Below, in pieces: positions 3,826-39,065 of a stretch of DNA of 64,000 nucleotides (within the stretch, counting starts at the first letter, position 1; every line of letters starts with the position of its first letter). Source of the stretch: an uncultured virus (IMG/VR IMGVR_UViG_3300017991_000098) (Duplodnaviria; Heunggongvirae; Uroviricota; Caudoviricetes); the IMG/VR virus record IMGVR_UViG_3300017991_000098, one strand, 5' to 3'. The translations under genes were made by a program, and so were the position numbers. A model generated the notes under the pieces. That model did no database searches, had not been told where the DNA came from, and saw nothing but the letters and a program-made list of their open reading frames with translations.

Positions 3826-4242
3826 TTAATACTTACGCAGGGTGATGGTAGTTTCTCCAGTGTTGTCGTTGACTTCCTCGTCGTACATCCACCCATCATT
3901 CAATGCCATATCCTGCACCTCTTTGCGTACTACCTCTTTGGTATACTCATTGATGAGGTACTGACAGCCTGGGCCAACTAGTGCCTGTAGACCCATGCCA
4001 CCACGGTAGTTGTCCCACTTAAAGCAATATGTGCCTTCTTCGGTGTCTTGAAAACACACACCGATTTCATAGGCCATGCTGTTATCAGGAACTCCGATGG
4101 CGTGTTCGCAGTCACCATCTTTGTGACCATACCATTTGAACTTCTTCTTGAATTTCTGAAAGTTAAGACCAAGCTTATTGCAAGCCTGTTCAAGAGATTC
4201 AAGGTCCTTTATGGTAACATCAACAACAGTAATATGACTCAT
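3826..4242 (-). CDS. DUF1257 (Ycf35-like) protein, paralog 1
   Basis: MSHITVVDVTIKDLESLEQACNKLGL...YEIGV...WD; GGAGG RBS upstream. Confidence 0.75.
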   Translation of the reverse strand: MSHITVVDVTIKDLESLEQACNKLGLNFQKFKKKFKWYGHKDGDCEHAIGVPDNSMAYEIGVCFQDTEEGTYCFKWDNYRGGMGLQALVGPGCQYLINEYTKEVVRKEVQDMALNDGWMYDEEVNDNTGETTITLRKY

Positions 4243-4348
4243 TTTCTGTCCTCCGTACGAGTCGAAATTGACTACCACAAAATAGCAATGGCTGTGCCAG
4301 CGAAGGTACAGCCGGTTGTATACTCAGATATTATGAAGACAGACAACC

Positions 4349-4864
4349 CTATCTCTCTGACATATCTCCTTGATCATCCTGACATTTCTCTTTGAACTTA
4401 TCCTTGGCGATCCGGAACTTGCCATCGCAAGAGTGACAAGAAATGATGGTATCAACGTCTTTTGATACTTCATGAGCCCGAGACACATTGCAGTGTGGGC
4501 ATGCCACAAAAATTGTGCAGGCGTTGGTTAGTATCCTGGGCTTTGTCTGTTTATGCTCAGGTATAAGCCCATTCTTGCGCTTTTCTTCTGCATGCTCCAA
4601 TTCCATATCAAGAAAACGCTGACCGAGCATATCTAAAAAGGTTCTCTGAAACAAATTCAGATTTTCACCGTTGTCTCTCTTCTCCTTCAAATCATCGATT
4701 ATATCTCCGGCCCTAGAGATCAAAAGCATCGAATCTTTCATAGGCAAATTAGCAAGCTCTTGCGCTAACTGCTCTGGACTACTGTCCATAACATCTTGCA
4801 TCATGGCATGGCCAAGCGTGTCAACGTTCAGTTCACCGCTGATTAATTTACCTATGAGAGACAT
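4349..4864 (-). CDS. Hypothetical protein with C-terminal zinc ribbon
   Basis: CPHC...CHSC; start overlaps upstream stop (TAATG). Confidence 0.6.
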   Translation of the reverse strand: MSLIGKLISGELNVDTLGHAMMQDVMDSSPEQLAQELANLPMKDSMLLISRAGDIIDDLKEKRDNGENLNLFQRTFLDMLGQRFLDMELEHAEEKRKNGLIPEHKQTKPRILTNACTIFVACPHCNVSRAHEVSKDVDTIISCHSCDGKFRIAKDKFKEKCQDDQGDMSER

Positions 4865-5322
4865 TAATACCTCCGAAGCGTGATGGTCGTTTCGCCAGTC
4901 TCACCATTGTATGATTCATCGACCATCCACCCGTCTTCGATGGCCATCTCATTCACCTCGGCTCGAGCAGCTTCCTTTGAATACTCATTGATGAGGTTGT
5001 CGCACTCATTACCGACAACATTTTGGAGCCCATACCCACCACCCCAGAAGTCCCACAAAAGACAGAATCCTTCTTGCCCGTCCCGGCGTTCACAGACTCC
5101 GATCTCGTAAGCCCTGTTGTTGCCCTTGACACGAAGTGCGTGAGCACATTTGCCCATGTCCTCTTTATTAAAACCATTAGGTAAAGGGTAATCACCAACA
5201 TGCCGACCATACCACTTGAATTTGGTTTGACCCTCGATAAATTCCAAGCCGAGTGTCTCACACGCCTTCTTGAGGGCTTCGAGGTTCTTAATCTGGACGT
5301 CTACGACCACGACATGACTCAT
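4864..5322 (-). CDS. DUF1257 (Ycf35-like) protein, paralog 2
   Basis: MSHVVVVDVQIKNLEALKKACETLGL...YEIGV...WDFW; clearly homologous to 3826-4242. Confidence 0.75.
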   Translation of the reverse strand: MSHVVVVDVQIKNLEALKKACETLGLEFIEGQTKFKWYGRHVGDYPLPNGFNKEDMGKCAHALRVKGNNRAYEIGVCERRDGQEGFCLLWDFWGGGYGLQNVVGNECDNLINEYSKEAARAEVNEMAIEDGWMVDESYNGETGETTITLRRY

Positions 5323-5346
5323 TTTGTGTATCTCTCCTTATCGTTG

Positions 5347-5582
5347 CAGTTATCCCGCGTGCGCGGAGTACATGTTTACGCCTTCCTGATCGCAGTGTCG
5401 GCTACCCATCTTCCCACGCGTGTTCGGAGCGCATTCATTTGTATTGGTCTGGAATGTCCCCATCTTTCCACGGAGCGTGAAGCTTGTAAACCCCATCTTT
5501 CCACGCGTGCGCGGAGCGCATTTCGGTGTCGCTCTTCAGCACGGAATACTCATCCATCTTTCCACGCGTGCGCGGAGCGCAT
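5347..5582 (-). CRISPR. CRISPR mini-array 1 (5 repeat units, 2 degenerate)
   Basis: +strand repeat CATCTT(C/T)CCACGCGTGCGCGGAGCGCAT at 5407-5434, 5494-5521 and 5555-5582; degenerate copy 5347-5373; internally deleted copy at 5461. Spacers 33, 26, ~16 and 33 nt. Confidence 0.9.
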
Positions 5583-5636
5583 ATTTGGTTAGTGAGTGAT
5601 TCCTCCTCACCATAAGGACCTGATGGAAGACCCCAT
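5583..5636 (-). ncRNA. Conserved array-proximal leader/scaffold element, copy 1
   Basis: Minus strand ATGGGGTCTTCCATCAGGTCCTTATGGTGAGGAGGAATCACTCACTAACCAAAT; near-identical copies precede all four arrays; two predicted hairpins. Confidence 0.7.
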
Positions 5637-5643
5637 AAAACAA

Positions 5644-6342
5644 TCATGAATCTTGTTTGTCTTCATATTGCTTAATGAAATTCTTGACGAAACTGAGTCG
5701 AGTTCCGATCAAACGCTTTGGATCATCTGGATCACGAAAATAAAAAGCAGCACCAGAACCACGTGGCACAACCTTTATGCAATCGGAGCCCTGAATATCG
5801 ACATAAGTTTCATCACCGACAGCACGAGTTTCTGACCGAATACGGCTGCGAACACGTTTAATCTTCAGCCTGCGTTCACGCAGTCGTTTATCTTCAATGA
5901 TCTTAATTTGCTCATCTACCGACGCGATCTTGGAGAATCCCCTTGGCAGCAATCTTGCCCATTCTGGATGCAGTACCTGGGAGGCTGGTTTGACCAACCT
6001 CTGTCCATCCACCGTAACAACAGTGACATCAATGTTGTTGATAATGTCGGCGGATGTGTCAGAATCAATCCGAGAAATCATGTGATCATCGAGACCGCAA
6101 ACGGACATAATGGCCTCATTGATTTCACCATTGCCGATTCGGCTCAATACCTTAAAACGAACCCTCGTCATGCCGCGTACGTTGCAAACATGATCTCGGA
6201 ACTTTTTGAACTCCCCAGTGTTAAGCAGCCCCTCCCATTTAACGATGATGCCGCCGAGTGCACGATAACCATCATGAATGGCAGTCAAACACTCATCAAA
6301 TTCTGCGCAAGCTTGTTCCAATTGTCCCATCGTTGCTGTCAT
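5644..6342 (-). CDS. Hypothetical protein embedded between CRISPR arrays 2 and 1
   Basis: 232-aa ORF with GGGAGAG RBS; no recognised motif. Confidence 0.7.
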   Translation of the reverse strand: MTATMGQLEQACAEFDECLTAIHDGYRALGGIIVKWEGLLNTGEFKKFRDHVCNVRGMTRVRFKVLSRIGNGEINEAIMSVCGLDDHMISRIDSDTSADIINNIDVTVVTVDGQRLVKPASQVLHPEWARLLPRGFSKIASVDEQIKIIEDKRLRERRLKIKRVRSRIRSETRAVGDETYVDIQGSDCIKVVPRGSGAAFYFRDPDDPKRLIGTRLSFVKNFIKQYEDKQDS

Positions 6343-6350
6343 AATCTCTC

Positions 6351-6612
6351 CCTTCGTTCGTGTGCGCGGAGCGCATGTCTTCTAGCGTTTTGCCTCATTC
6401 TGACCATCTTCCCACGCGTGCGCGGAGCGCATGCGTTCTTGCGCAACTTCTCCAAATCACTCTCATCTTCCCACGCGTGCGCGGAGCGAATCCCTGCACC
6501 ATCTTGCGCTCTTTCTCCGTAACCATCTTCCCACGCGTGCGCGGAGCGCATAGGAACCTATTTGGTGGCGACATCTACAACGCCCATCTTCCCACGCGTG
6601 CGCGGAGCGCAT
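6351..6612 (-). CRISPR. CRISPR mini-array 2 (4 intact repeats + 1 degenerate terminal repeat)
   Basis: Repeats at 6405-6432, 6464-6491, 6524-6551 and 6585-6612; degenerate copy ending 6376. Spacers 28, 31, 32 and 33 nt. Confidence 0.93.
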
Positions 6613-6666
6613 ATTTGGTTAGTGAGCGATTGCTCCTCACCATAAGGACCTGATGGAAAGGCCCCA
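6613..6666 (-). ncRNA. Conserved leader/scaffold element, copy 2
   Basis: Minus strand TGGGGCCTTTCCATCAGGTCCTTATGGTGAGGAGCAATCGCTCACTAACCAAAT, starting 8 nt after the stop codon of the Cas12f-like gene. Confidence 0.7.
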
Positions 6667-6674
6667 CAAAATAA

Positions 6675-7955
6675 TTATGCGGCTTCGCCGCTCATCTCGT
6701 CAACGCTCTTCGTCTTAACAAATGAGAGGCCGTGCTCCTGACACTTATGCTCAAGGAAAGTCAAAAACTGGTAATATGTCCAGTCACCCAGCATCTTGAT
6801 CGGACCCACCTCACACAGGTCAGTAATTCTGATGCCCTCGCACTTGCGTTTGATGGCTTCTTGAACAATGGCATGAGTGCGCTGGTGGTTCCAAGTTTTC
6901 TGGAAATTTTCACGTTTTGTGCGAAGATTATCATACGCCTTCATGGCTCGTTTACGACCCCTGCCATGCCGCGCAGTTTGCCGTCCATCACAGCGGAATG
7001 AATTACTCATGCTGAGCCGGCGCTTCTCGAATTGAACCATCTTGCGCCTCACATCTTCCCATGGCAACCGCCATTTCCAATTTGGATTATCAGACGGTGC
7101 GGCACACAGAAAGATATTTGGATCATCATCGACCCAAATATCAAAAGTCCTGCCTTCAACAGCCTTATGATTCTTAACAGGAACCTGGGCATTGAATACT
7201 GCATACCACTCGTCCTTATTGCCCTTCCTGTGACGTACAAATTTAATTTGTGGAACGTCGAGATTGCTGTCGATGAATACATCGATAAATTGTTTGATCT
7301 CTGTATTCTTATGATTCCAACTGCATGGGATTAACATCCTGGTGCTTTCGCGCCTGCCGGATTGCACAGCCTCTTTGCTGAACATTGTAACAGTGAGTAC
7401 ATAATTATCACCATCACGTTTGAGTGACCATGTTCTGGCATTCTGATCAAAAGATTTATCGCTGTGCCTGCTTACACCACGTGTTCCATCCACCAAGATG
7501 CCCTTGCGCTCAGTCTTATAGCGGCTGGCTGCTGATTGCTTGGCGACCTGAATCATCCCAGAAGCAATGTCCGGACACTCATCATGCAGTGTCCTAATGA
7601 TTTTAGAGACTTCACTCTTAATCACCTCCTTGCTTGGTAGTGGAAGCGAAGAAGCCCAAGAGGGTGCCTTCCTATTATTATCAATTGCATCTTTGATACG
7701 ACTATTCACAGCAGCGATTTCATCTGGGTTATAAACAGTATCGATTCGCCCCCACATTTGCAAAAAGCGATTCATAACAAAACGATAGTTTTTTGCGATC
7801 TCACGGAATGTCTTGTACTCATCGCCTTTCAAGTGTAACTTGATCTTGATGGCTTTTGGGGCCAAGTGGGTCCTGCAACAACGACCATTACCAAAAGACA
7901 CTGTCTTTTGGGTTTTTACTTCTTTGTTACAGATAAAACACTGAATTGTGCCCAT
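6675..7955 (-). CDS. Cas12f/TnpB-family protein, predicted nuclease-dead
   Basis: C-terminal HGRGRKR...LRTKRENFQKTWNHQRTHAIVQEAIKRKCEGIRITDL...LGDWTYYQFLTFLEHKCQEHGL matches the Cas12f bridge-helix/RuvC-II pattern. RuvC-I GIDLG appears replaced by FDIWVD and RuvC-II EDL reads TDL; no C-terminal CxxC finger or RuvC-III. N-terminal CxxC...CCxxH; flanked by arrays. Confidence 0.85.
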   Translation of the reverse strand: MGTIQCFICNKEVKTQKTVSFGNGRCCRTHLAPKAIKIKLHLKGDEYKTFREIAKNYRFVMNRFLQMWGRIDTVYNPDEIAAVNSRIKDAIDNNRKAPSWASSLPLPSKEVIKSEVSKIIRTLHDECPDIASGMIQVAKQSAASRYKTERKGILVDGTRGVSRHSDKSFDQNARTWSLKRDGDNYVLTVTMFSKEAVQSGRRESTRMLIPCSWNHKNTEIKQFIDVFIDSNLDVPQIKFVRHRKGNKDEWYAVFNAQVPVKNHKAVEGRTFDIWVDDDPNIFLCAAPSDNPNWKWRLPWEDVRRKMVQFEKRRLSMSNSFRCDGRQTARHGRGRKRAMKAYDNLRTKRENFQKTWNHQRTHAIVQEAIKRKCEGIRITDLCEVGPIKMLGDWTYYQFLTFLEHKCQEHGLSFVKTKSVDEMSGEAA

Positions 7956-7986
7956 ATCACTTTCTCCTTATCCACACAGTATACGA

Positions 7987-8045
7987 CCATTTTCCATTGC
8001 TGGTTGGTGAGACCACCTCACCATATGGGACAAATGGAGCCCCAT
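7987..8045 (-). ncRNA. Diverged fifth scaffold copy with repeat remnant, upstream of the cas-like gene
   Basis: Minus strand ATGGGGC-TCCATTT-GTCCCAT, then TGGTGAG-GTGGT-CTCACCA, then ACCAGCAATGGAAAATGG: the same two hairpins with compensatory changes. Confidence 0.6.
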
Positions 8046-8072
8046 GAAATCATCAAAAAATCCCCACATCGG

Positions 8073-8243
8073 CATCTTCCCACGCGTGCGCGGAGCGCAT
8101 GAGATCTCACTCTCCTTACACAGGCAAAAGCACATCTTCCCACGCGTGCGCGGAGCGCATGGGGTATTAATATTGACCATCTTCCCACGCGTGCGCGGAG
8201 CGCATGGTCATCTTCATTCATGTCACGCGTGCGCGGAGCGCAT
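8073..8243 (-). CRISPR. CRISPR mini-array 3 (3 intact repeats + 1 partial)
   Basis: Repeats at 8073-8100, 8133-8160 and 8178-8205; partial 8224-8243. Spacers 32, 17 and ~18 nt. Confidence 0.9.
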
Positions 8244-8295
8244 ATTTGGTTAGTGATTCCTCCTCACCATAAGGACCTGATGGAAAAGACCCCAT
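8244..8295 (-). ncRNA. Conserved leader/scaffold element, copy 3
   Basis: Same element with a 4-nt deletion in hairpin 2; TATAAT at 8299-8304 (minus strand) just upstream. Confidence 0.65.
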
Positions 8296-8319
8296 AATAT
8301 TATATACCCAAATGGTAAA

Positions 8320-9867
8320 TTACCCAATATTCAACTGTCGACCAGCCTGATCCCTGGCCCCCTTATGGGTTTCACTGGCATTGATGGCGTTGTCCTCGGC
8401 CCAATTCTTCATCTCCTCAAGATCACTGCTTCTGGACTTGGACAAGGGGTTGGTACCTTGAATCGCTGCCAGCACGTCGTCAGATTCCAATTCGCGATCG
8501 TTATGAAATGCGAGAAAAAGACCAGACCGGATGGCTTCTTCAAGCTCTGCGCCACTGAAACCATCGGATTCTTTAACGCATTTCTTGAAATCGAAATTCT
8601 TGGGGTCACGACCATACTTGCCAGCATGAATAGCCAAGATCTCAGCGCGTTCCTCTGGAGAGGGAAGGCCAACGAAGAAGATCTCGTCGAAGCGGCCCTT
8701 GCGCAGAAGCTCAGGCGGCAAGCCTTTCATGCGGTTAACCGTAGCGACAAGGAACACCGGGGCGGTCTTTTCCTGCATCCACGTGATGAAGTTGCCGAAC
8801 ACGCGCTGACTGGTGCCGCCATCCGTACTACCGCTACCGCCCATACCTGCAAATGCCTTATCCATCTCATCGATCCATAACACACATTGACCAACAGCTT
8901 CAACCGTCTGGATAGCACGGCGCAGGTTACTCTCAGACTCACCCACCAAGCCACCAAACACGCGCCCAATGTCGAGTCGAATGAGAGGGACGCCCAGGAT
9001 GTTGCTAGTAGCCTTGGCTGCGAGACTCTTACCACAACCGGGGAGGCCCACAAGCAGGGCACCACGTGGATTGGGGAGGCCGAATTCCCTGGCCTTCTTG
9101 CTGAACGCCTTACTGCGCATCTGCAACCACAATTTGAGGTTCTCCAACCCGCCAATATCATTGATGGTTTCGCTGGTTGGGAAGTATTCGAGGGTCCCTG
9201 ACTTCTTGACGGCAGAAGCCTTCTCAGCCAGAACAAGTTGTGACAGGGAAGTACCCTCGCCCATACTGGCAGCAATAATGATGGCTTTCGAGTACGCATT
9301 TTCGGCCTCGGTCGTGGTAAGGCCCATGGCTGCTTGAATGATCTTATCGCGCTCATCTTCATCAACATTAATGCCGCGCTTCTTAAGACCGGCCTTGTTG
9401 GTTTCGATTACTGCATCCAATGTCTTTGCCAGCGTCTCACGATCTGGCAAATCAAATTCGATGAGTGCAACGTCACGTTCGAGTTCCGGTGGGATCTGCT
9501 TGACGGGACTTATGATGACTATCGTCTTTTGAAGTTGCTTAAAATCGTTAGCAATGTCGCGCATCATGCGCACAGCCCTGACTTGCTTCCACGCAATGTG
9601 GATATCACGGAAGATATAAACAGCAGGACCAGGAAGCTTCTGAATGTGCATGAGGGCCTTGATGGGTTCAGCCATAGATTCGTCATATTGGACTTTCTTC
9701 TTGTCTGCACTAGGCTGATACATACCACGCGAACACGACCAGACGTGGATGTTTGGACGACCAGACTCTGCACAAGCCTTGATGACCTCTTTTTCTGCTC
9801 TGCCCTCTTCGGCAGTCAGCAAATAAATCACGGAATAACCGGCGTTAAAATAGGAAGCCAGATCCAT
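8320..9867 (-). CDS. Ycf46-like AAA+ ATPase
   Basis: DIGGLENLK, Walker A GLPGCGKS, Walker [31 protein letters not shown] before MDLASYF. Confidence 0.9.
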
Positions 9868-10122
9868 TGTGTTCCTCCTAAAAATGTGACAAAGGGATAT
9901 GCAAGAAAAAGTCACCCTTTCCTAGCAAACCGTGTGCCAGTTCACACATACCGCCAGTTGTATGTCTAGCCTCGACATCTTGTCGCTCTGACATAGAACA
10001 CTTTCTGTGTGACATGTTTTCTTGTAGTTTATATGGGGTTGGTAAACTATTGTGGATGCTCGTAGAGGCTAGTAATTTACCCTCGCTGCTATATAAGCGG
10101 ACAGAAAGACAGGAGGACCAAA

Positions 10123-10347
10123 ATGTCCGTTGAAGTGAAAGAAATAACCGACAACATCGAGAAGACACTAAGCCTCGCAGAAGATGTTGATGATGACGCT
10201 GAACGCTTTGACCCGTCAACAGATAGTGCAGAGATACATGTGCCAACCATGCTTGCTGTCTTGTCGCAACACCTGACAAATCAAGCCATGATTATGGAAA
10301 TACTAGGTGAGATAGAGTCAAACACTCGTATGAGGAGAAGAACATGA
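10123..10347 (+). CDS. Hypothetical protein
   Basis: AGGAGG RBS; ATGA overlap with the next gene. Confidence 0.65.
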   Translation: MSVEVKEITDNIEKTLSLAEDVDDDAERFDPSTDSAEIHVPTMLAVLSQHLTNQAMIMEILGEIESNTRMRRRT

Positions 10348-11108
10348 GCAAGACCCCAAAGCTTCATGAAGTTATTGCGGTAGAAGGTGAACTGGCTGGC
10401 GTGAACAGCCGGATTCTCACCGAGACTGCGGCTACCCTGAGCAAGAAGGAAGACCACTTCCTCGCGTGGCACAAGACCTATGAACCGAAAGACGAAGATG
10501 GGGAGAAGTTCCCGGATGAACACCACGAGATGGTGACCACCGTCCCGGATAAGCTCCAGTACATGTTCAAGCAGGTCGTGCCCTACATCGACGCTGTCCT
10601 GCAAAAGGAGCGCACTAACCAAGACGCCAGAGCCGACCTCGAGGTTGATGGGGTCATGATCGCAGAGGGGCTGCCTGCCACCTTCCTACTCGGCATGGAG
10701 ACCAAACTGAAGGAATGGCGCAAGGTTCTGGACTCCTGCCCCACCCTGGCCCCTGGTAAGTCGTGGCAGAAAGACGAGACAAAGGGTAAGAATGTCTTCG
10801 TCAGTGAGCACGACGACAAGCGCAGCAAGACGCAGAAGACCGTCAACCATAAGGTCATTGTACAGCCGACCGAACACCACCCGGCGCAGGTCGTGGAGTT
10901 CACCGAGAACATCATCGTCGGATGGACCAGTACCAGGAACTGGAGCGGCATGATCACCCCGGCCCAGAAATCTGACATGCTTGGGCGTCTGGACAAGCTT
11001 CTGCGGGCAGTGAAGAAGGCCCGACAGCGTGCTAACAGCACCGACCTCGTCAAGGTTAAGGTGGGTGATGCGATGGCTAACTATATCCTCGGAGATCTCA
11101 TTGCATAA
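10344..11108 (+). CDS. Conserved hypothetical helical protein
   Basis: 254 aa; KLHEVIAVE...KTYEPKDEDGE...LPATFLLGME...LLRAVKKARQRAN; GC3-rich codon usage. Confidence 0.75.
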   Translation: MSKTPKLHEVIAVEGELAGVNSRILTETAATLSKKEDHFLAWHKTYEPKDEDGEKFPDEHHEMVTTVPDKLQYMFKQVVPYIDAVLQKERTNQDARADLEVDGVMIAEGLPATFLLGMETKLKEWRKVLDSCPTLAPGKSWQKDETKGKNVFVSEHDDKRSKTQKTVNHKVIVQPTEHHPAQVVEFTENIIVGWTSTRNWSGMITPAQKSDMLGRLDKLLRAVKKARQRANSTDLVKVKVGDAMANYILGDLIA

Positions 11109-11227
11109 AAAGGTAACTGAAGAAAGTTGCAGTTGCCCGTACTATGGGGCCACCTTCAAACAGTAAAGGTATGGTTGCACATCACCTTGGTTTCGCTTTT
11201 GTGATGATTTTCTCGATACTTGTCTTC

Positions 11228-11281
11228 ATGGGGCCTTTCCATCAGGTCCTTATGGTGAGGAGCAATCGCTCACTAACCAAT
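11228..11281 (+). ncRNA. Conserved leader/scaffold element, copy 4 (opposite orientation)
   Basis: ATGGGGCCTTTCCATCAGGTCCTTATGGTGAGGAGCAATCGCTCACTAACCAAT, almost identical to copy 2. Confidence 0.7.
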
Positions 11282-11371
11282 ATGCGCTCCGCGCACACGT
11301 GGGAAGATGGTTTCGTAAACAGAGCCTGTCGCCCGACGAGATCATGCGCTCCGCGCACGCGTGGGAAGATG
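11282..11371 (+). CRISPR. CRISPR mini-array 4 (2 repeats, one 34-nt spacer)
   Basis: ATGCGCTCCGCGCAC(A/G)CGTGGGAAGATG at 11282-11309 and 11344-11371. Confidence 0.85.
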
Positions 11372-11653
11372 GTGGTGAGCATGAGGTGCGTCATAATCAT
11401 CATGGCAGTGGTTGCGCCATGAGTATTTGATTTTTGTAACTGAGCAGCGTTAGCTTCAGCGTCATAGGTGGAAGTCTGGTCCTACAATCACAGCAGTCCC
11501 ATATGAGAGGGAAGTTGGATTGTGGGTCAAGCCAGACCAAAGCCTCCCGTGCCCGATTGAGGTATGGGGTCAGCGTCATGTACGTCAGCGTATTGCTCAG
11601 ACAGCTTCAGGGAAGCACGCGAACAAGTAGGTAGATTGAAACCCTAGGATAAA

Positions 11654-11748
11654 GCCGAGGTCGTGGGTTCGTGTCCCACCCCGCCATCACCTGGCCCTTT
11701 TGAGTAGAGGACTCGGTGATGGCGGGTAGCTCAGTGGTAGAGCGCGGT
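11654..11748 (+). ncRNA. Circularly permuted tRNA-like domain (YrlA/Y-RNA-like)
   Basis: T-arm GTGGG-TTCGTGT-CCCAC (11663-11679) precedes a closed 12-bp acceptor-like stem CCCGCCATCACC/GGTGATGGCGGG. It is followed by TA and the D-arm GCTC-AGTGGTA-GAGC, and closed by GCCG/CGGT. Confidence 0.7.
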
Positions 11749-11798
11749 GATTCAGATTGAGGTTTCGACCTTACCGAAAATAGCGATGGGACCCAAGC

Positions 11799-11872
11799 TT
11801 TTCGGTAGCCCAATTGGATGAGGCACTGAGTCTAAAACTCAGTTGATATGGGTTCGATTCCCATACGATGCT
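11799..11872 (+). tRNA. Degenerate tRNA / tRNA-like element (anticodon loop TCTAAAA)
   Basis: TAGCCCAATTGGATGAGGC D-arm, CTGAG/CTCAG anticodon stem, ATGGG-TTCGATT-CCCAT T-arm; acceptor stem poorly paired. Confidence 0.5.
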
Positions 11873-19181: not shown

Positions 19182-20828
19182 ATGAAAGAAATAGACAAAA
19201 ACTTTCCATTTAATGAATATAGGCCACACCAAAAAGAAACGATCTTAAAGATGTTGGCCAAATTCGACAAAGTCGATAACATAATACTCGAGAGTCCAGT
19301 AGGTACTGGGAAATCGGTATTGGCAGTCACGTTGTCGAATCTTCTTGGCAGATCATACTACCTCACAATTCAGCGTATACTGCAAGACCAGATCATAAAT
19401 GACTTCCGTTCTCAGGGAATGGTTGAACTAAAGGGTCGTAGTAATTATGAATGTTGGTTCCTGAATCGCATGGCCCAGGTGTCACGCAATGAAACTGCCA
19501 AATTCCTGGATGAAGCAGAGCAAACCGGCAGAAAACTCAACCTAGACAGGGAAGATGACGACGAGGACGAAGAATACGAAGAAGTAGAAAAGCGAAAGTA
19601 TTACGCCAATAAAGGGCGTTGCGTGCGTAAGGGCAAGAGCTTTCTGAAAGGTTGCATAGACAAGAACAAATGCGCCTATAAAAACCAAATAGACGCAGCC
19701 ACGTTCGCCAGGCATTCTGTGTTCAACTTCTCAAGCTTCCTATATCAAAGACGAGCCGGTAGGTTTGGAGAGGAAAGAGACCTGCTTGTGATAGACGAGG
19801 CGCATCAAATTGAACCACAAATAATGGATTATGTTGATGTCACTATTGATGGTAGTGACATTGGTCAGGCATTGCCAGAATATGAAACCGCATTGGAGTA
19901 TCGAGACTATTTCGAACAGGTTGGTCTTACCAAGATAATTGCTGGCCACATGATGCAGGCCGAAAGTGATGAAGATATCGATGAGATGGAGAAGTGGACC
20001 AGGATTCAGGGTAAGTATAACACATTTAAGTTATATGTAGAACATGTGGATTGTGTCGCCGAACTCAAGAAAAACGTGGTGACTATCAAACCACTATATG
20101 CCACTTACCACGCTCCTCGTTTGTTACTCCCAGCTGGACGTCGCCGTCTCTTTATGTCAGCAACCATATTAAATCCGCGCATCTTCGGCGACAGCATCGG
20201 TCTGGACCCAGAAAAAACTGCATATATAACAGTACCGCACACCTTTCCGGTTGCTAATAGGCCCATTCACCTGGATTATGCTGGGTCCATGAAATTTAGC
20301 AACCGCAAGAAAACCATGCCTGCCATGATCAAGAAAATCGACAAGATCATGACCAAGCACAAAGGTGAACGTGGTATCATCCACTGCCAATCCTTTGGTA
20401 TTATGGATGCTATTCTGTCTGGGTTGTCGTCCAAGAACAAACGCCGGATCATAGACCAGCGTGAGTACCGAAGAAGAGAGGAAGTACTCGCCACACAGTC
20501 TATAAGCACAGATTCTGTCATTATGGCCCCAGCCATGCATGAAGGCCTAGACCTGAAGGGTGATCTATCCCGGTTCCAAATCCTAATGAAGGTCCCATAC
20601 CCAGACGCCTCAAACAACAAACAGCTTAAGGTCAGAATGAATGAGTCCTGGCAATATTATTTGTGGTTGACAGCGTTAAAGTTTGTACAGAGCTATGGGC
20701 GCAGCATCCGTGCCCAAGATGATTGGGCAGAGACTTATATTCTAGATAGCGATTTTGACAGGTTCTATGGTATGGCTGATCGATTCAGCCTGCTTCCGGA
20801 TTGGTTTGTTGAGGCGATCCAGGTTTAA
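19182..20828 (+). CDS. DinG/XPD (Rad3)-like SF2 helicase
   Basis: YRPHQ Q-motif, ESPVGTGKS, LKGRSNYEC, VIDEAH, MSAT, EGLDL, KVPYP, QSYGRSIR. Confidence 0.9.
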   Translation: MKEIDKNFPFNEYRPHQKETILKMLAKFDKVDNIILESPVGTGKSVLAVTLSNLLGRSYYLTIQRILQDQIINDFRSQGMVELKGRSNYECWFLNRMAQVSRNETAKFLDEAEQTGRKLNLDREDDDEDEEYEEVEKRKYYANKGRCVRKGKSFLKGCIDKNKCAYKNQIDAATFARHSVFNFSSFLYQRRAGRFGEERDLLVIDEAHQIEPQIMDYVDVTIDGSDIGQALPEYETALEYRDYFEQVGLTKIIAGHMMQAESDEDIDEMEKWTRIQGKYNTFKLYVEHVDCVAELKKNVVTIKPLYATYHAPRLLLPAGRRRLFMSATILNPRIFGDSIGLDPEKTAYITVPHTFPVANRPIHLDYAGSMKFSNRKKTMPAMIKKIDKIMTKHKGERGIIHCQSFGIMDAILSGLSSKNKRRIIDQREYRRREEVLATQSISTDSVIMAPAMHEGLDLKGDLSRFQILMKVPYPDASNNKQLKVRMNESWQYYLWLTALKFVQSYGRSIRAQDDWAETYILDSDFDRFYGMADRFSLLPDWFVEAIQV

Positions 20829-22378
20829 CGTTCATAAACGAATCTGAGCTTTTTCTCGCCAAACACCTTATTGTAATTGTGTTTAGTTGCATATTCAGAT
20901 TCTGTTAAGGACATTTTACGGGCTCTGTTATATAGAGTCTTTTTGTGCATCACCCAACCATTAATCGAAACATACCAGTAATCTGGCTTAACCTCACCAT
21001 CCAATCTAAAGTTGCAAGCCTTGTATGTGGCACCGTTGTGGTTAAAGGTAGTGTCGCAGTAGGATATAACCGTTCGGTACTTGTCTGGCAATCTTTTTAT
21101 GCATCTTGAAACGAACCATGATGCGAAATTCTTTTTCTGGTATCTTGGGTGTATACAGAGTCGTGACAATTCCCTAGTGGTCTCCCTATCCCACGGAAGA
21201 TTTTGCCTAGTCAATGGACTAAAAACACAAACAGCCACCAAGCAATCCATCAAATAGGCACCAAGAACGTTGCCACCGCGACCAGCATTTGATAAATAAT
21301 GGTACTTCGACAAGAGGCTTCTATATTCATCAGCAGTACTGGGTTTTATATTGATGTCGCCGAATTCAAAATCAACCGCCTCAATACTCGACAAGCCAAC
21401 CCAGTACTTAATCAACTCAATAACACGGTCTTTGCAGCCAAACTCGTGCTCCCACAAATACCGCAGTTCGTAGTCTTTACAATAACGCTCAACGTAAGTT
21501 GATTTTGCTTTGTCGTTTCTAACCGCCTTACCTAGAGAATGCCAGTATTCGCCCTGGCACTCTATTAGAAGCGTCTTGTTGTGTAACTGTATGGCGCAGT
21601 CAAAGCAATATGGACCTATTTGGTGTTCAGCTTCATAAACAACACCGAGGTCATCCAATATGGAATACAACACCAATTGTATTGACGAAATGCGCGGCAT
21701 ATTGGACCTAACAACGGCCATCTTTTCTCTATATGCTGGGTCTTTCCACAGCCTTAGGGCATTCTCTCTAGCTATTTTCTGCATCCGTTCCCTATAGCCC
21801 GGAATAGACCAGATTTTTCTCATTGATTCTCTATACGGCTCGCTCCTCCTTTTCTCTATGATGCCGGCCTTGCGATCCTCATCGGCCCAATATGAGCTAG
21901 CCTTCTTAGCATTGTCCACCAACTTTGACTTTGGCATTTTGCCCATGCCAAGCTTGACAGCCTCAGAAAATTCCTTATTACCCTTTCTATTCTCATAGGA
22001 CTTGTCATATATACCACGGCTAGACTTGCGAGAACAACTTATACAAAGGTTGTTCAATTTTGCTGTTCTACGTTGTACGGTCCTGGCCTTGCCGCATCCG
22101 GGACAAACAACTTCTACCGCATCAGTGTTTGATGTGGAATTTATTCGCCTTTTGCGTGCAGATTCAGCACTGGCTTTGGCACCACATTCAGAACACCTGT
22201 TATAACCAAGCTTTTTCTTTTGCTTATAGAAGTTTGGGGACGTCATTGAGGTAAGATTGCCACATTCGTGGCAATTAAATGTCTTACGCTTTGCTGCCAT
22301 AGAAATAAAATACTATATGGTATGGCAGACCGGTTTAACCTGCTTCCGGATTGGTTTGTTGAGGCAATTCAGATCTAG
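20766..22378 (+). repeat. 63-bp imperfect direct repeat (20766-20828 and 22316-22378) of the helicase 3' end
   Basis: YGMADRFSLLPDWFVEAIQV* versus YGMADRFNLLPDWFVEAIQI*; 10 mismatches, 8 at third codon positions. Confidence 0.9.
20825..22300 (-). CDS. Zn-ribbon + Vsr/DUF559-like endonuclease + Mom-like GNAT fusion, copy 1
   Basis: FDC...LIECQGEYWH...DKAK...LWEHE; YHYL...RELSRLC...NFASWFVSR...ISYCD...HNGATYKACNF. Confidence 0.75.
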   Translation of the reverse strand: MAAKRKTFNCHECGNLTSMTSPNFYKQKKKLGYNRCSECGAKASAESARKRRINSTSNTDAVEVVCPGCGKARTVQRRTAKLNNLCISCSRKSSRGIYDKSYENRKGNKEFSEAVKLGMGKMPKSKLVDNAKKASSYWADEDRKAGIIEKRRSEPYRESMRKIWSIPGYRERMQKIARENALRLWKDPAYREKMAVVRSNMPRISSIQLVLYSILDDLGVVYEAEHQIGPYCFDCAIQLHNKTLLIECQGEYWHSLGKAVRNDKAKSTYVERYCKDYELRYLWEHEFGCKDRVIELIKYWVGLSSIEAVDFEFGDINIKPSTADEYRSLLSKYHYLSNAGRGGNVLGAYLMDCLVAVCVFSPLTRQNLPWDRETTRELSRLCIHPRYQKKNFASWFVSRCIKRLPDKYRTVISYCDTTFNHNGATYKACNFRLDGEVKPDYWYVSINGWVMHKKTLYNRARKMSLTESEYATKHNYNKVFGEKKLRFVYER

Positions 22379-28997: not shown

Positions 28998-29276
28998 CTA
29001 ATACTCATTATTACGCAGCTTATCTAGAACACGTTCTAACTTATCCCTATTGCTGAGAAGAATTCTTTCCATTTGGGTGTTCTGCGGGTCATCAAACTTC
29101 CGCCTGCCCATGGCGATCACAATGAGTTCAATATCTTGCGCAATCATCCTCTGGATACGTCTGGGCTCCTGCTCCAGGGCATGCTTTAATAAGTTGACTT
29201 GCTCCTTTAACCTACTAGTGGCATCCGGATAGACTTCTGGCTCAAGAGCTTCATCAAGTCTTTGACTAAACGACAT
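28998..29276 (-). CDS. Hypothetical protein
   Basis: Starts MSFSQRLDEALE at a TAATG overlap. Confidence 0.6.
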   Translation of the reverse strand: MSFSQRLDEALEPEVYPDATSRLKEQVNLLKHALEQEPRRIQRMIAQDIELIVIAMGRRKFDDPQNTQMERILLSNRDKLERVLDKLRNNEY

Positions 29277-30730
29277 TAGGCCGTTATCTCCCTTAGCTTC
29301 CACTTTAGAATATATTTGCGTTTTTGTTTGCCATAGACCTTATGATACCGATGTTCCTTGGCATATTCCAATTCCTTCATACCCATCTTTTTGGCATGGT
29401 CGTAGAGGGTTTTCTTGTGTATAGTCTTACCGTCTTCGCTCACATAATGGTAATCCGGAGGCACAATGTGCACAAATTTCCAGTTGGTGGCCTGGTATAT
29501 CGTGCCGACATGGCCAAACGTTTCGTCTGCAAAACTTATAAGACCACAGACAGAATCATTGTCTCGTTTAAAAGTACGAACAAAGCGCCCAAGTATGTAT
29601 GATGCAAAATTCTTCTTGTGATATGGATCAGATATGGCAAATCTCGTGAGTTCGCGTACCTGCCCAAACTTCAAATCGAGATCTTTGATGGATTCCCGCC
29701 TAGTTGGCGCTGCAAACCCGCAGATGGCAATTGTCTTGCCATTTAGAATGGCACCATAAAACTGGCCAGAACGGCCAGCATTGGCCATATAATGGTACTT
29801 CCCGCAAAAGATATTGGCATCTTGCCTAAAGATATTAGCAATCTTGCATTTTTTGAAGTCAAAATCCACAATCTCAGTATCTTCTAAACCACACCATTGC
29901 CTGACGTGACCAAGGACCTTACCAACCTCTTTGAATTCATGCTCCCAAATGGTCTTTAACTCATATTGGTCTGAGTAATAGCGGGAAATGAATGTGGCTT
30001 TTTGCTTGTCTCGAATAATCTTTTCCGGGCGATTGTGAAAGTAGTCACCTTGAACCTCTATAAGAAGATCTTTGCGACCCTCTCGCGGAATCATGCAATC
30101 AAAAGCGTTAAACCCAACCACAAACTCCGGTTCGTAACCAACCCCACAATCATCTAGCAAAGAATAAAGTATTTTCTGAAGGTTGCTGACTGGCTTGCCG
30201 TAAGACGCCATCAATTTGCGATACTCTGGATCTTGCCATCGCTTTTTCTGCCTTTTAGAATACTCCGCAGAGTGTGATTTTATACCCGCTATTGCTTTAT
30301 CCTTGATCTCTGGGTCAGACCATAGGGATTTTAACTTGCCTCCCACCTTCTCTCTGAATTCACTGTTCTGCCAAAGCTTCTTGGATGTCTCAGACATCTT
30401 GCTTTTGACATCGGGTCTGTTCTTAATGCGCTTTTGGGTTCTGGAAGCCTTTGCCCTATTGTCCGGATTATCCCAATATCCCTTGAGCTTGTCCCTCATC
30501 CGCTTTTTGTTGTTTGGGTCAACCATGTTTTTCTTAGACGCTGCCGATATCTTGGCTTTACACTTTGGGTCACGCACAGAACAAGGTCTGCATAAGTATC
30601 GGCCGTCACCGCGCCTTTTAATAGTGCGAACATAACGCCCATATAGCATATTGCGGCGTGCTCCACAAACATCACACGCCGCAATAATATTGGTTTTGAA
30701 TTTTGGGTTTTCTGGCTCTTCTATAAGCAT
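29276..30730 (-). CDS. Zn-ribbon/basic repeats + Vsr/DUF559-like endonuclease + Mom-like GNAT fusion, copy 2
   Basis: FDC...LIEVQGDYFH...DKQK...IWEHE; YHYM...RELTRFA...NFASYILG...ISFAD...HVGTIYQATNW; paralog of 20825-22300. Confidence 0.75.
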   Translation of the reverse strand: MLIEEPENPKFKTNIIAACDVCGARRNMLYGRYVRTIKRRGDGRYLCRPCSVRDPKCKAKISAASKKNMVDPNNKKRMRDKLKGYWDNPDNRAKASRTQKRIKNRPDVKSKMSETSKKLWQNSEFREKVGGKLKSLWSDPEIKDKAIAGIKSHSAEYSKRQKKRWQDPEYRKLMASYGKPVSNLQKILYSLLDDCGVGYEPEFVVGFNAFDCMIPREGRKDLLIEVQGDYFHNRPEKIIRDKQKATFISRYYSDQYELKTIWEHEFKEVGKVLGHVRQWCGLEDTEIVDFDFKKCKIANIFRQDANIFCGKYHYMANAGRSGQFYGAILNGKTIAICGFAAPTRRESIKDLDLKFGQVRELTRFAISDPYHKKNFASYILGRFVRTFKRDNDSVCGLISFADETFGHVGTIYQATNWKFVHIVPPDYHYVSEDGKTIHKKTLYDHAKKMGMKELEYAKEHRYHKVYGKQKRKYILKWKLREITA

Positions 30731-37703: not shown

Positions 37704-39065
37704 TTATGACACCTCACCCGCAAACTCAATTGCAGTCTGCCTTGGGTCGGTTACAGTAAACTCTTTGTCGGTGTGCGGCATCTCGCCCTTCTTGGACTTA
37801 TCACCCTTCTTGAAACCGAAGATGGCCCTATGTGACCAACCATACCACTTCCCATCTTTTTCACAGAAACCGATGGAGCACACGCAGTGCTTGGGGTCGG
37901 CCTTCTCCGGGGCGATACCACGCTTATCACACAGAAATTTGGCCTGATCAGCATCGCCTATCCATTCATCGTTGTGGTTATAGGCGTTTTGCATCTCCAT
38001 GGGCTCCATATCTGAGCCCTTTTCTTTTATCTTCTCTGTGCGCAAAACATATGTACCCTTGTCCTGTTCCTTCTTAACATCGACTTCCCAGGCGTCTCTG
38101 TTGAACTCTCTCAGAAGACGACCGCGATTGCGGTGAAGCTGCCTCCACTCCATATTTAGTGTGTCTTTGATCATCTCAATGTCATCATCATCGTCGATGT
38201 CACCCTCTTCGGCAATCTGCTTGAGTTCGCGCATCCACTTGAGGTAGTAGTATCTCTCAAGAAGCTTGAAAATGACGTTGTCTGGTAGTTCATTGCGGCT
38301 ACCATATCTTGCTATTTCAGCTGGGTTTGCCTCGTCGCTGAAGGCTCTATGGCGAAAATCTCTGAGGTGGTTATACTGCGACACTATCTCCTCAACAGCA
38401 TCTTCTATGTCAATGAGCTTTTCACTCATGGCCTTCTCAATACCCTTAACTTCGCTCTTTGGTAGCTCTCTCATGAGTTCATAATCGATGATGTTTCTCT
38501 TAAGCTCACCAGTGGTGGTGTCAATCATGGCGGCGACTTTTTGAAATTTGGACATATAATCGCCAACATTGATAGAGATATTATACGGACCCTTTATCCA
38601 CCCATGTTCCCACCCACGCTCCCTGAAATCTGGATAATATATTCCATCAGCGTTGACAGGATTATATTGACCTTGGTTCAAATAAATCTGTAGTGGATGT
38701 TCTGTGCCAGGAACGAGGATTTCACCGATTTCATCATCGACCTGATTCTGCAGCCTATCCCTTTCCTCATCGGTAGTCGATTTGTCAATCTCGATTAGAA
38801 TATCGAGATCTGTGGTATCACGCCACTGGAAGCTTAGAAGTGATCCCTTGACGAACCAGTCTTTAACGTCAACAACGTCTCGATCTACCCTATCCACGAT
38901 GGTCTTGATGAAATTGGATACGTCAGAACGCATTTCATACTCATCTTCGTCTTTGGTGAATATATCAGGATCTAGGGTTGAGCGCGTCCAGTCGATGACG
39001 GCTTCACTTAGAATGGAGGACAACGTGTCCCCAAACATGGCTTGAGGTTTGTAATCTAGTTTCAT
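37704..39065 (-). CDS. Pol-beta-superfamily nucleotidyltransferase-like protein
   Basis: FVKGS...W...TDLDILI; ELPDNVIFKLLERY. Confidence 0.6.
   Translation of the reverse strand: MKLDYKPQAMFGDTLSSILSEAVIDWTRSTLDPDIFTKDEDEYEMRSDVSNFIKTIVDRVDRDVVDVKDWFVKGSLLSFQWRDTTDLDILIEIDKSTTDEERDRLQNQVDDEIGEILVPGTEHPLQIYLNQGQYNPVNADGIYYPDFRERGWEHGWIKGPYNISINVGDYMSKFQKVAAMIDTTTGELKRNIIDYELMRELPKSEVKGIEKAMSEKLIDIEDAVEEIVSQYNHLRDFRHRAFSDEANPAEIARYGSRNELPDNVIFKLLERYYYLKWMRELKQIAEEGDIDDDDDIEMIKDTLNMEWRQLHRNRGRLLREFNRDAWEVDVKKEQDKGTYVLRTEKIKEKGSDMEPMEMQNAYNHNDEWIGDADQAKFLCDKRGIAPEKADPKHCVCSIGFCEKDGKWYGWSHRAIFGFKKGDKSKKGEMPHTDKEFTVTDPRQTAIEFAGEVS

Follow-up and report, generated by a model that had tools for sequence, protein, structure and literature searches.

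Organization of the locus

The stretch of DNA analysed here, hereafter the window, comprises the 64,000 nucleotides (nt) of IMG/VR record IMGVR_UViG_3300017991_000098, from an uncultured virus of the Caudoviricetes. It is a phage genome fragment, with genes for tail proteins, two Mom-like proteins, an RNA ligase, and a protein with a Tad6-like domain. Its subject of interest is a conserved element of 52–55 nt that stands before each of four small CRISPR-like repeat arrays, beside a gene for a Cas12f-like protein. The arrangement raises a question: is this element an ordinary array leader, or does it form part of a guide RNA?

The 29-nt repeat (ATGCGCTCCGCGCACGCGTGGGAAGATGG) has 12 matches in the window at three or fewer mismatches, a search for which shuffled sequences predict none. 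These copies are grouped in four arrays, of which three run on the minus strand between genes of the same orientation and the fourth on the plus strand. Array 1 (5345–5582, −) has four repeats and one that is internally deleted; its terminal repeat is degenerate, with 10 mismatches. Array 2 (6348–6612, −) has five repeats and spacers of 27–32 nt, and its terminal repeat, also degenerate, holds the ribosome-binding site of the next gene. In both cases the degenerate repeat sits at the end distal to the element. Array 3 (8072–8243, −) consists of four repeats, the first with a damaged 3′ end, separated by 9, 16, and 31 nt and followed by 26 nt beyond the last. Array 4 (11282–11372, +) has two repeats with one 33-nt spacer between them. 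Across the window, full-length spacers are 27–33 nt long. The repeat contains an internal hairpin of six base pairs (bp) and a 4-nt loop (UCCGCG/CGUGGG around CACG), with a 7-nt tail behind it. Between copies, the final base of the repeat is not constant (5406–8205 and 11282–11372), a hint at how these arrays were built; in type I-E arrays, the last repeat base arrives with the spacer.

Four near-identical copies of the element lie in array sense, each directly 5′ of the first repeat of its array: c1 (5583–5636, −) at array 1, c2 (6613–6667, −) at array 2, c3 (8244–8295, −) at array 3, and, on the opposite strand, c4 (11228–11281, +) at array 4. The second of these starts 8 nt past the stop codon of the Cas12f-like gene. 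The first repeat after c3 is the one with the damaged 3′ end, and only 9 nt separate it from the next repeat; the c3 unit is therefore without a usable first spacer. A diverged fifth copy, c5 (7987–8045, −), is solitary. It is located between array 3 and the start of the 426-amino-acid (aa) Cas12f-like open reading frame (ORF), and it ends 31 nt before the start codon. The tail of c5 is the repeat minus its internal hairpin and can be read as AUG-GAAAAUGG. The sequence that follows (7960–7986, −) is the putative 5′ untranslated region (UTR) of the Cas12f-like gene, with the ribosome-binding site AAGGAG, and may also be a 3′ guide for c5; it has no match elsewhere in the window.

The element had been singled out in an original prediction made from the letters of the sequence and a list of its open reading frames. 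The positions given there agree with ours to within one or two bases, with c5 now extended from 8001 to 7987. A 16-mer from the element has six window matches at three or fewer mismatches, where 0.46 are expected. Five are the copies themselves; the sixth (at 41851) is probably a chance match.

The element can fold into two hairpins

In c1, hairpin 1 (HP1) is GGGGUCU/AGGUCCU around the loop UCCAUC, and hairpin 2 (HP2) is UGGUGAG/CUCACUA around a 9-nt loop. For c1–c4 together, HP1 is best written as seven base pairs, GGGGYCU/AGGUCCU, enclosing a loop of 6–8 nt that contains CCAUC. The same four copies share the HP2 stem, which a 4-nt deletion cuts to 6 bp in c3. In c5, HP1 becomes AUGGGGC/GUCCCAU around UCCAUUU, and HP2 becomes UGGUGAG/CUCACCA around GUGGU, after which come ACCAGCA and AUGGAAAAUGG. 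The HP2 loops are thus 5, 7, or 9 nt long. Pair tables for these hairpins were made by script, as MAFFT alignments of the elements were out of structural register.

Two structural claims of the original prediction hold. It had proposed a two-hairpin fold with a variable HP2 loop, and both hairpins are kept in all five copies. It had also proposed that the G-U pairs work only on the array-sense strand. HP1 of c1–c4 contains two or three such pairs, so that this hairpin should form on that strand only, and in five of five copies the sense strand folds better than the antisense strand, by 3.4–4.9 kcal/mol.

The divergence of c5 is instructive. Over 55 alignment columns, 12 substitutions and 7 indel columns separate it from c2, most of them in loops and linkers, and yet the two fold equally well (−20.4 kcal/mol for c5, −20.3 kcal/mol for c2). 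When random mutants were generated with the same number of changes, only 0.6% of 3000 were equally stable. This pattern is more telling than the thermodynamic z-scores of the element folded alone, which are −3.1 for c2, −2.8 for c4, and −1.9 for c5 (those of c1 and c3 are taken up below).

Rfam has nothing at the element, whether at the gathering threshold or at E ≤ 5, and an exact 22-nt string from it has no match in viral contigs. A sigma-70-like promoter (TTGACG-18-CATAAT, 10/12) is predicted at 6674–6703 (−), within the 3′ end of the Cas12f-like ORF. Its −10 hexamer ends 6 nt before c2, the first base of which is 7 nt on. Hexamers resembling a −10 box, read by eye and unscored, also lie 6–7 nt upstream of the other copies.

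The HP1 loop matches the end of the repeat

The HP1 loop of c1–c4 carries CCAUC, the complement of the last five nucleotides of the repeat, GAUGG. In c5, the loop CCAUUU faces the tail AAAUGG in a 6-bp match; one of the changes is compensatory, and one adds a pair. Both the complementarity and the joint change in c5 had been proposed at the outset (as CCATC/GATGG and CCATTT/AAATGG), and both are confirmed. The chance of a match between a 7-nt loop and an 8-nt tail is 0.010 for at least 5 nt and 0.0013 for at least 6 nt; taken within the window alone, the match is suggestive only.

The c5 loop pairs over 6 bp with its own tail and over 4 bp with the array repeats, a preference that argues for pairing in cis, at least in c5. 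As far as complementarity alone goes, a pseudoknot of the kind found in guide scaffolds can be drawn for c1–c4 and for c5, and likewise for two distant loci described below (L014 and L015). The stem that belongs directly upstream of the pseudoknot strand would be the internal hairpin of the repeat; c5 lacks it. A tracrRNA (trans-activating CRISPR RNA) in the strict sense has an anti-repeat of about 10 nt or more, whereas the complementarity between element and repeat extends to only 5 nt. Outside the arrays, anti-repeat 10-mers have three matches in the window, all in coding regions and at about the chance level.

The neighbouring gene encodes a predicted nuclease-dead Cas12f-like protein

The 426-aa protein encoded at 6675–7955 (−), P0001, was assigned by family, structure, and motif comparison. 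It matches no Pfam family, and its hit to the NCBIfam family guided_TnpB (4e-17) is under that family's cut-off. A phmmer search against solved chains returned Cas12f1 (9i8y, 5e-17) and AsCas12f (8j3r, 3.5e-14). The alignments stop at about residue 370 of nucleases that have 432–500 residues, i.e., some 60–130 residues short of their ends. An AlphaFold2 (AF2) model built with 37 family members has a pLDDT (predicted local distance difference test) of 87.7. The best Foldseek match of this model is AsCas12f (8j12_A, E 9e-22, TM 0.63/0.64), and the nuclease-dead Cas12f (dCas12f) 9n9c_A is matched with a TMt of 0.71. Other Cas12f structures also match, TnpB scores lower, and the LaTranC structure 9jfo is a weak fold match. 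By sequence and modelled fold, then, the protein is closer to Cas12f than to TnpB.

Compared with active-looking relatives, P0001 has no GxDxG motif at RuvC-I and has Thr at the position of the RuvC-II Glu. It stops before the zinc finger (there is no CxxC) and before RuvC-III. Lacking these parts, it should bind DNA but not cut it. The Cas12f fold, together with the lost catalytic residues and the C-terminal truncation, makes it a predicted dCas12f. Element copies c2 and c5 flank its ORF on the same strand, the adjacency to the gene that is expected of a guide scaffold.

The protein has few close relatives. A word-based search returned only the query itself. Among 1.84 billion representatives, HMMER recovered 319 proteins at E ≤ 1e-3, with only three at E ≤ 1e-30, the query included. 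A short tail without the zinc finger is present in 47 of 150 sequences (the query and the 149 listed matches), among them the eight best full-length ones; the 254-aa fragment P0007 was not counted as short-tailed.

The gene that follows array 2 (5644–6342, −) encodes a 232-aa protein, P0002. None of Pfam, NCBIfam, and PHROG assigns it to a family, its matches in the Atlas are all unnamed clusters, and a comparison with phages gave no match. Its AF2 model is poor (pLDDT 53). This protein could be an accessory factor of the system.

A related locus carries the gene pair and the element

Neither the single protein P0001 nor a first alignment found relatives in viral contigs, and a different alignment yielded 0 of 92 candidate stretches in genome contigs. 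In metagenome contigs, one of 263 candidate stretches was a relative: L001, a contig of 1360 bp. It encodes the C-terminus of a protein (P0003) that is 43% identical to P0001, directly followed by a homologue of P0002 (457–1098, +; 27–30% identity, E 3e-12). The adjacency of the two genes in L001 as well as in the window indicates that they are a conserved pair.

Past this gene pair lies an RNA element of the same layout: an HP1 with the stem GCGGC/GCCGC around the loop ACCAACCA, then UAA, then an HP2 of GGUGAG/CUCACC around a 30-nt loop. The HP2 stem has the same sequence as in the window, and the folding z-score is −5.6. Next comes a tRNA-Leu gene. The 1360-bp contig carries no CRISPR repeat; the presence of gene pair and element without a repeat suggests that the element travels with the gene pair and not with the arrays. 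In the window, the element-array unit appears to have been placed between the members of the pair. In a separate search, matches to the HP2 motif were found at 12 loci in viral contigs, and these were dismissed as chance hairpins, since a gene of the family was near none of the 12.

Distant phage loci show the same match with different sequences

A profile of distant short-tailed relatives identified three phage loci in viral contigs (of 58 candidate stretches), L014, L015, and L016. All three encode Cas12f-like proteins with zinc fingers.

In L014, the gene is preceded by a very stable RNA, which opens with an HP1 whose strands UUGGGUCG and CGGCCUAA enclose the loop CCUCCA, and continues with the HP2 GGCGAG/CUCGCC. 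Two more hairpins follow, and then an 11-nt anti-repeat to nucleotides 20–30 of a 36-nt repeat. The CUCCA of the HP1 loop is complementary to nucleotides 31–35 of that repeat, UGGAG. Relative to GGUGAG/CUCACC in the window, HP2 of L014 has a double compensatory change, from U-A to C-G. This locus (3942–5510 and 6302–7433) lies on a 193-kb contig of a large phage. Its Cas12f-like protein has 522 aa and a RuvC-I motif that reads VNRG, with Asn for Asp; there is also an array of 16 repeats, and the tracrRNA-like RNA folds at −90.9 kcal/mol over 201 nt.

In L015, the element lies between the gene and the array: HP1 is AGGGUG/CACCCU around GUUGUA, then come AAA and an HP2 of GGUGA..UCACC. The loop GUUGUA complements the final six bases of the repeat, UACAAC, without a mismatch. 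Past HP2, the sequence runs through an anti-repeat, a UUAA loop, a truncated repeat, a 7-nt tail, and a spacer, the composition of a natural single guide. The locus (5640–5830) looks active; its single-guide first unit has a 30-nt spacer and is followed by a normal array of four repeats. L014 and L015 are thus canonical tracrRNA versions of the HP1–HP2 layout in the window, with the anti-repeats that the window element lacks.

In L016 (6219–6576), the Cas12f-like gene (RuvC-I INRG) is followed by a purine-rich tract that runs to the end of the contig. The tract has at least seven copies of AGATGGAGG at irregular spacings of 27–78 nt, and it may be an array of very short repeats. Upstream of the gene is a 7-nt complement, CATCTCC.

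Over the window, c5, L014, and L015, the cognate matches between loop and tail are 5, 6, 5, and 6 nt long, and no non-cognate pair exceeds 4 nt. The corresponding chance values are 0.010, 0.0013, 0.0072, and 0.0006, which are to be read as indicative and not as formal probabilities, since the hairpins in L014 and L015 were chosen after the pattern had been seen. The covariation of loop and repeat end in these two loci is the decisive comparative evidence on the nature of the element, and it speaks for a guide scaffold.

The element as the probable 5′ half of a guide-RNA scaffold

We consider it likely that the nuclease-dead Cas12f-like protein uses a guide-RNA scaffold of which the element is the 5′ module, i.e., its tracrRNA-like or omegaRNA-like half. 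The original prediction had argued for a functional RNA scaffold over an ordinary leader, and four lines of evidence now sustain that view: the neighbouring gene of Cas12f fold without a working RuvC site; the homologous element beside the related gene pair in L001, without a repeat; the loops of L014 and L015, each matched to its own repeat end, with the double compensatory change in HP2; and the retained stability of c5. The assignment draws on sequence, folds, complementarity, covariation across loci, and the fold and lost catalytic residues of the protein. From these we infer that the element is transcribed and bound by the protein, how it is used in cis or in trans, and what kind of biological target it serves.

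The transcript would start a few bases upstream of the element and run through HP1, HP2, a 7-nt linker, the first 29-nt repeat, and the first spacer, which would act as the guide. The repeat would supply the 3′ module, consisting of its internal hairpin (the counterpart of stem 4 in omegaRNA and stem 5 in Cas12f guides) and the tail GAAGAUGG. The last five nucleotides of this tail, GAUGG, would pair with the CCAUC of the HP1 loop and form a pseudoknot immediately 5′ of the guide. Because the element provides one module and the first repeat the other, the two together would make a natural single-guide scaffold of about 84 nt. With a guide of about 16 nt, its length fits the range of 85–105 nt measured for other dCas12f guides (PMC13472631). 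The protein-RNA complex would then bind complementary DNA without cutting it, resulting in silencing or some other kind of gene control.

Nothing within the 29-nt repeat is complementary to GAUGG, and so the later repeat-spacer units could not make the pseudoknot by themselves. They may be served in trans by the 5′ module, through the same 5-bp contact, or they may see little use. Copy c3, with the damaged repeat and 9 nt behind it, would act only in trans or else be a relic. Copy c5 would be a self-contained version, its loop and tail adapted to each other, that is joined to the dCas12f mRNA at the 5′ UTR.

A more specific picture may be offered tentatively, and we regard it as rather doubtful. 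The locus would be a working halfway house, in which the repeat duplicates an omegaRNA-like 3′ module while a 5′ module, present once per array, serves the first spacer in cis and later CRISPR RNAs (crRNAs) in trans through a 5-bp kissing contact; c5 would let the dCas12f protein take its own ribosome-binding site as a “guide” and so autoregulate its synthesis. If this were true, the element would be the shortest tracrRNA-like partner of a Cas12f-family protein. As to its origin, a secondary condensation of a tracrRNA and an intermediate on the way from omegaRNA to CRISPR are equally possible; the former comes into consideration because P0001 nests among Cas12f-like proteins.

Evidence against the scaffold and alternative explanations

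A number of observations weigh against a guide scaffold. The folding z-score is weak for c1 (−0.57) and gives no support for c3 (+0.73). The stems of the window copies have only one-sided G-C/G-U changes and no double compensatory change. The pseudoknot in the window is only 5 bp long, and one of its bases varies, the last repeat base being G in 8 of 12 copies and A, C, or T in the others. The post hoc choice of hairpins in L014 and L015 has been mentioned. In L016, the 7-nt complement to the short repeat motif has a topology that differs from that of L014 and L015 and is ambiguous, which leaves the comparative pattern clear in two of the three distant loci. On the short L001 contig, the HP1 loop has no complement, and the 3′ flank pairs with the 5′ flank instead. 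The only public sequencing run in which the stretch occurs is a DNA run (a sediment metagenome); none is listed as RNA.

The spacers add to these difficulties. They exceed the guides of 14–16 nt measured for other dCas12f proteins. No second site for any of them exists elsewhere in the window. The spacers of arrays 1 and 2 gave six records among GenBank phages, the best at E = 1, and of two spacer 18-mers searched in viral contigs, one gave nine loci (with only 20–22 of 32 nt matching) and the other none. These searches gave no spacer target from which a target-adjacent motif could be read. Finally, with a 29-nt repeat, a central hairpin, and spacers of 30–33 nt, the arrays look like those of class 1 (type I-E-like) systems.

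Among the alternatives, the one that survives best, though we judge it unlikely, is that the element is an ordinary DNA leader, with a promoter and integration signals for host-supplied Cas1–Cas2, and that the copies belong to a single array type. The element does sit exactly at the leader position, and leader-proximal growth predicts degenerate terminal repeats at the end away from the element, as in arrays 1 and 2. The variable last repeat base and the 30–33-nt spacers, moreover, resemble type I-E adaptation. However, the element is 51% G+C (counted on c2) and not AT-rich, and the promoter-like site lies upstream of it, not within it. Neither c5 nor the L001 element is accompanied by a normal repeat; the hairpins survive heavy divergence; and in L014 and L015, loop and repeat end are again complementary, in different sequences. 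The 66 window ORFs scanned yielded no cas1, cas2, or other cas gene.

A second alternative is a processing or antitermination leader, in which the 3′ part of the element, GCUCACUAACCAA, is a boxA-like site that allows RNA polymerase to read through the untranslated arrays to the genes downstream. This segment presumably resembles the rrn boxA consensus. The arrays lie inside an operon, between same-strand genes, and natural CRISPR arrays with boxA elements upstream have been reported (PMC7862264, in a passage citing Stringer et al.). However, the boxA-like bases are the 3′ strand of HP2, and the 5′ strand of HP2 is invariant in the five window copies and in L001, which argues for pairing and not for a single-stranded protein site. 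In addition, c5 and the L001 element precede no array, and the covariation of loop and tail is left unexplained. We regard this explanation as very improbable.

It is just as hard to credit that the arrays serve a host class 1 (type I-E-like) effector, in the manner of phage mini-arrays that hijack Cas proteins of the host, and that the element has nothing to do with the Cas12f-like protein: the repeat length, the hairpin of 6 bp with a 4-nt loop, the 7-nt 3′ handle, and the spacer lengths resemble types I-E and I-F, but the repeat end complements the loop of an element that is tied to a Cas12f-like gene in L001, L014, and L015, the 66 window ORFs scanned include no class 1 cas gene, and the 21-nt core of the repeat is absent from 185,579 species genomes (the last being weak evidence).

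Relation to known systems

The scaffold that we propose can be set beside several known guide RNAs. In the omegaRNA of ISDra2 TnpB, nucleotides −5 to −3 pair with nucleotides −103 to −105, and the core of guide, pseudoknot, and stem is conserved across Cas12 guide RNAs (Nakagawa et al. 2023, PMC10097598). The analogy to a guide-adjacent omegaRNA pseudoknot, which the original prediction had drawn, agrees with that description. The same paper proposes, on structural grounds, that type V CRISPR arrays originated from omegaRNA. The element and first repeat share with the Cas12f single-guide RNA and the TnpB omegaRNA this core, with a stem immediately upstream. They differ from Cas12f tracrRNA and omegaRNA in having no long anti-repeat, the hairpin being inside the repeat instead, and in a 5′ module of only about 54 nt that is fused in cis to the first repeat.

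The closest published description is that of the array-linked dCas12f proteins of Hoffmann et al. (Nature 2026, PMC13472631), where a feature of this kind has already been noted. Those proteins form a cluster separate from the sigma-E-associated dCas12f proteins, and putative guide RNAs were recognized by covariance upstream of their arrays. A C-terminally truncated Cas12f homologue, a covarying RNA directly upstream of the array, and a proposed role in RNA-guided DNA binding for gene control are common to both; the published cases are known by bioinformatics only. The present system differs in being phage-borne, in having four arrays each with its own element copy and one further copy, standing alone, in the gene's 5′ UTR, and in its 29-nt palindromic repeat, its very divergent protein, and its partner gene P0002 of no known family.

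The sigma-E-associated dCas12f proteins themselves use guide RNAs of 85–105 nt and no tracrRNA (PMC13472631). Their guide, like that of TldR (Wiegand et al., 10.1101/2023.11.30.569447), lies immediately downstream of the dead-nuclease gene, as it does here, and both have no separate tracrRNA, a scaffold of about 70–97 nt, and the guide at the 3′ end. TldR is, moreover, phage-encoded, as is the system in the window. Whereas those systems have single or tandem full-length guides, here a 5′ module is followed by a repeat-spacer array. The window locus does not fall among the sigma-E-associated systems: Pfam detects no sigma-factor domain in the 66 window ORFs, and beside the locus no sigma-E or helix-turn-helix gene was detected, the neighbours being an AAA ATPase and P0002.

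The VIPR system (10.64898/2026.10.15.759431) is also a phage system of RNA-guided silencing, with arrays as well as solo guides and a part in conflicts between mobile elements. Its RNAs, built as arrays of GGYNN units of 5 nt and ending in a 3′ tail, read DNA noncontiguously. The window locus contains no GGYNN units, and its identity with VIPR was rejected.

The scoutRNA of Cas12c and Cas12d contacts the repeat through 3–5 nt. It resembles the element in being a short structured RNA that touches the repeat by only about 5 nt. Unlike the element, which is joined to the first repeat, it is a separate gene whose product acts in trans with the large, active Cas12c or Cas12d. In the TranC or RNA-splitting model, a guide RNA is reportedly split into a tracr-like and a repeat-derived part, as we propose here; its protein is said to belong to a different lineage and to be active.

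Genomic context

Elsewhere in the window, three stretches (37704–39065, 20825–22300, and 29276–30730, −) are likely to encode counter-defence functions, namely a Tad6-like Thoeris-inhibitor domain and two Mom-family proteins. Near them are genes for an adenosine deaminase, the RNA ligase, and a radical SAM protein. The AAA ATPase that neighbours the locus has no relative in viral contigs, and its matches in GenBank phages have at most 39% identity. Downstream of array 1 are two paralogous ORFs of about 150 aa (3826–4278 and 4864–5322, −) that belong to no known family and share about 70% DNA identity over 140 nt. After array 4, tRNA-like sequences are found at 11600–11870; Rfam reports one tRNA there (11806–11864, 33.7 bits), and ARAGORN reports none in the window.

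Implications

The architecture described here has a direct bearing on how CRISPR arrays might arise from single guide RNAs. If confirmed, it would be a compact natural case of a split scaffold, in which the 5′ module stays single and the palindromic 3′ module is multiplied into an array. The step from omegaRNA to type V arrays would become testable with a 426-aa protein and a scaffold of about 84 nt. The locus would also extend the RNA-guided proteins that bind DNA without cutting it to a phage lineage for which the collections searched contain no close relatives, and it would provide a programmable DNA-binding module of very small size and with several guides.

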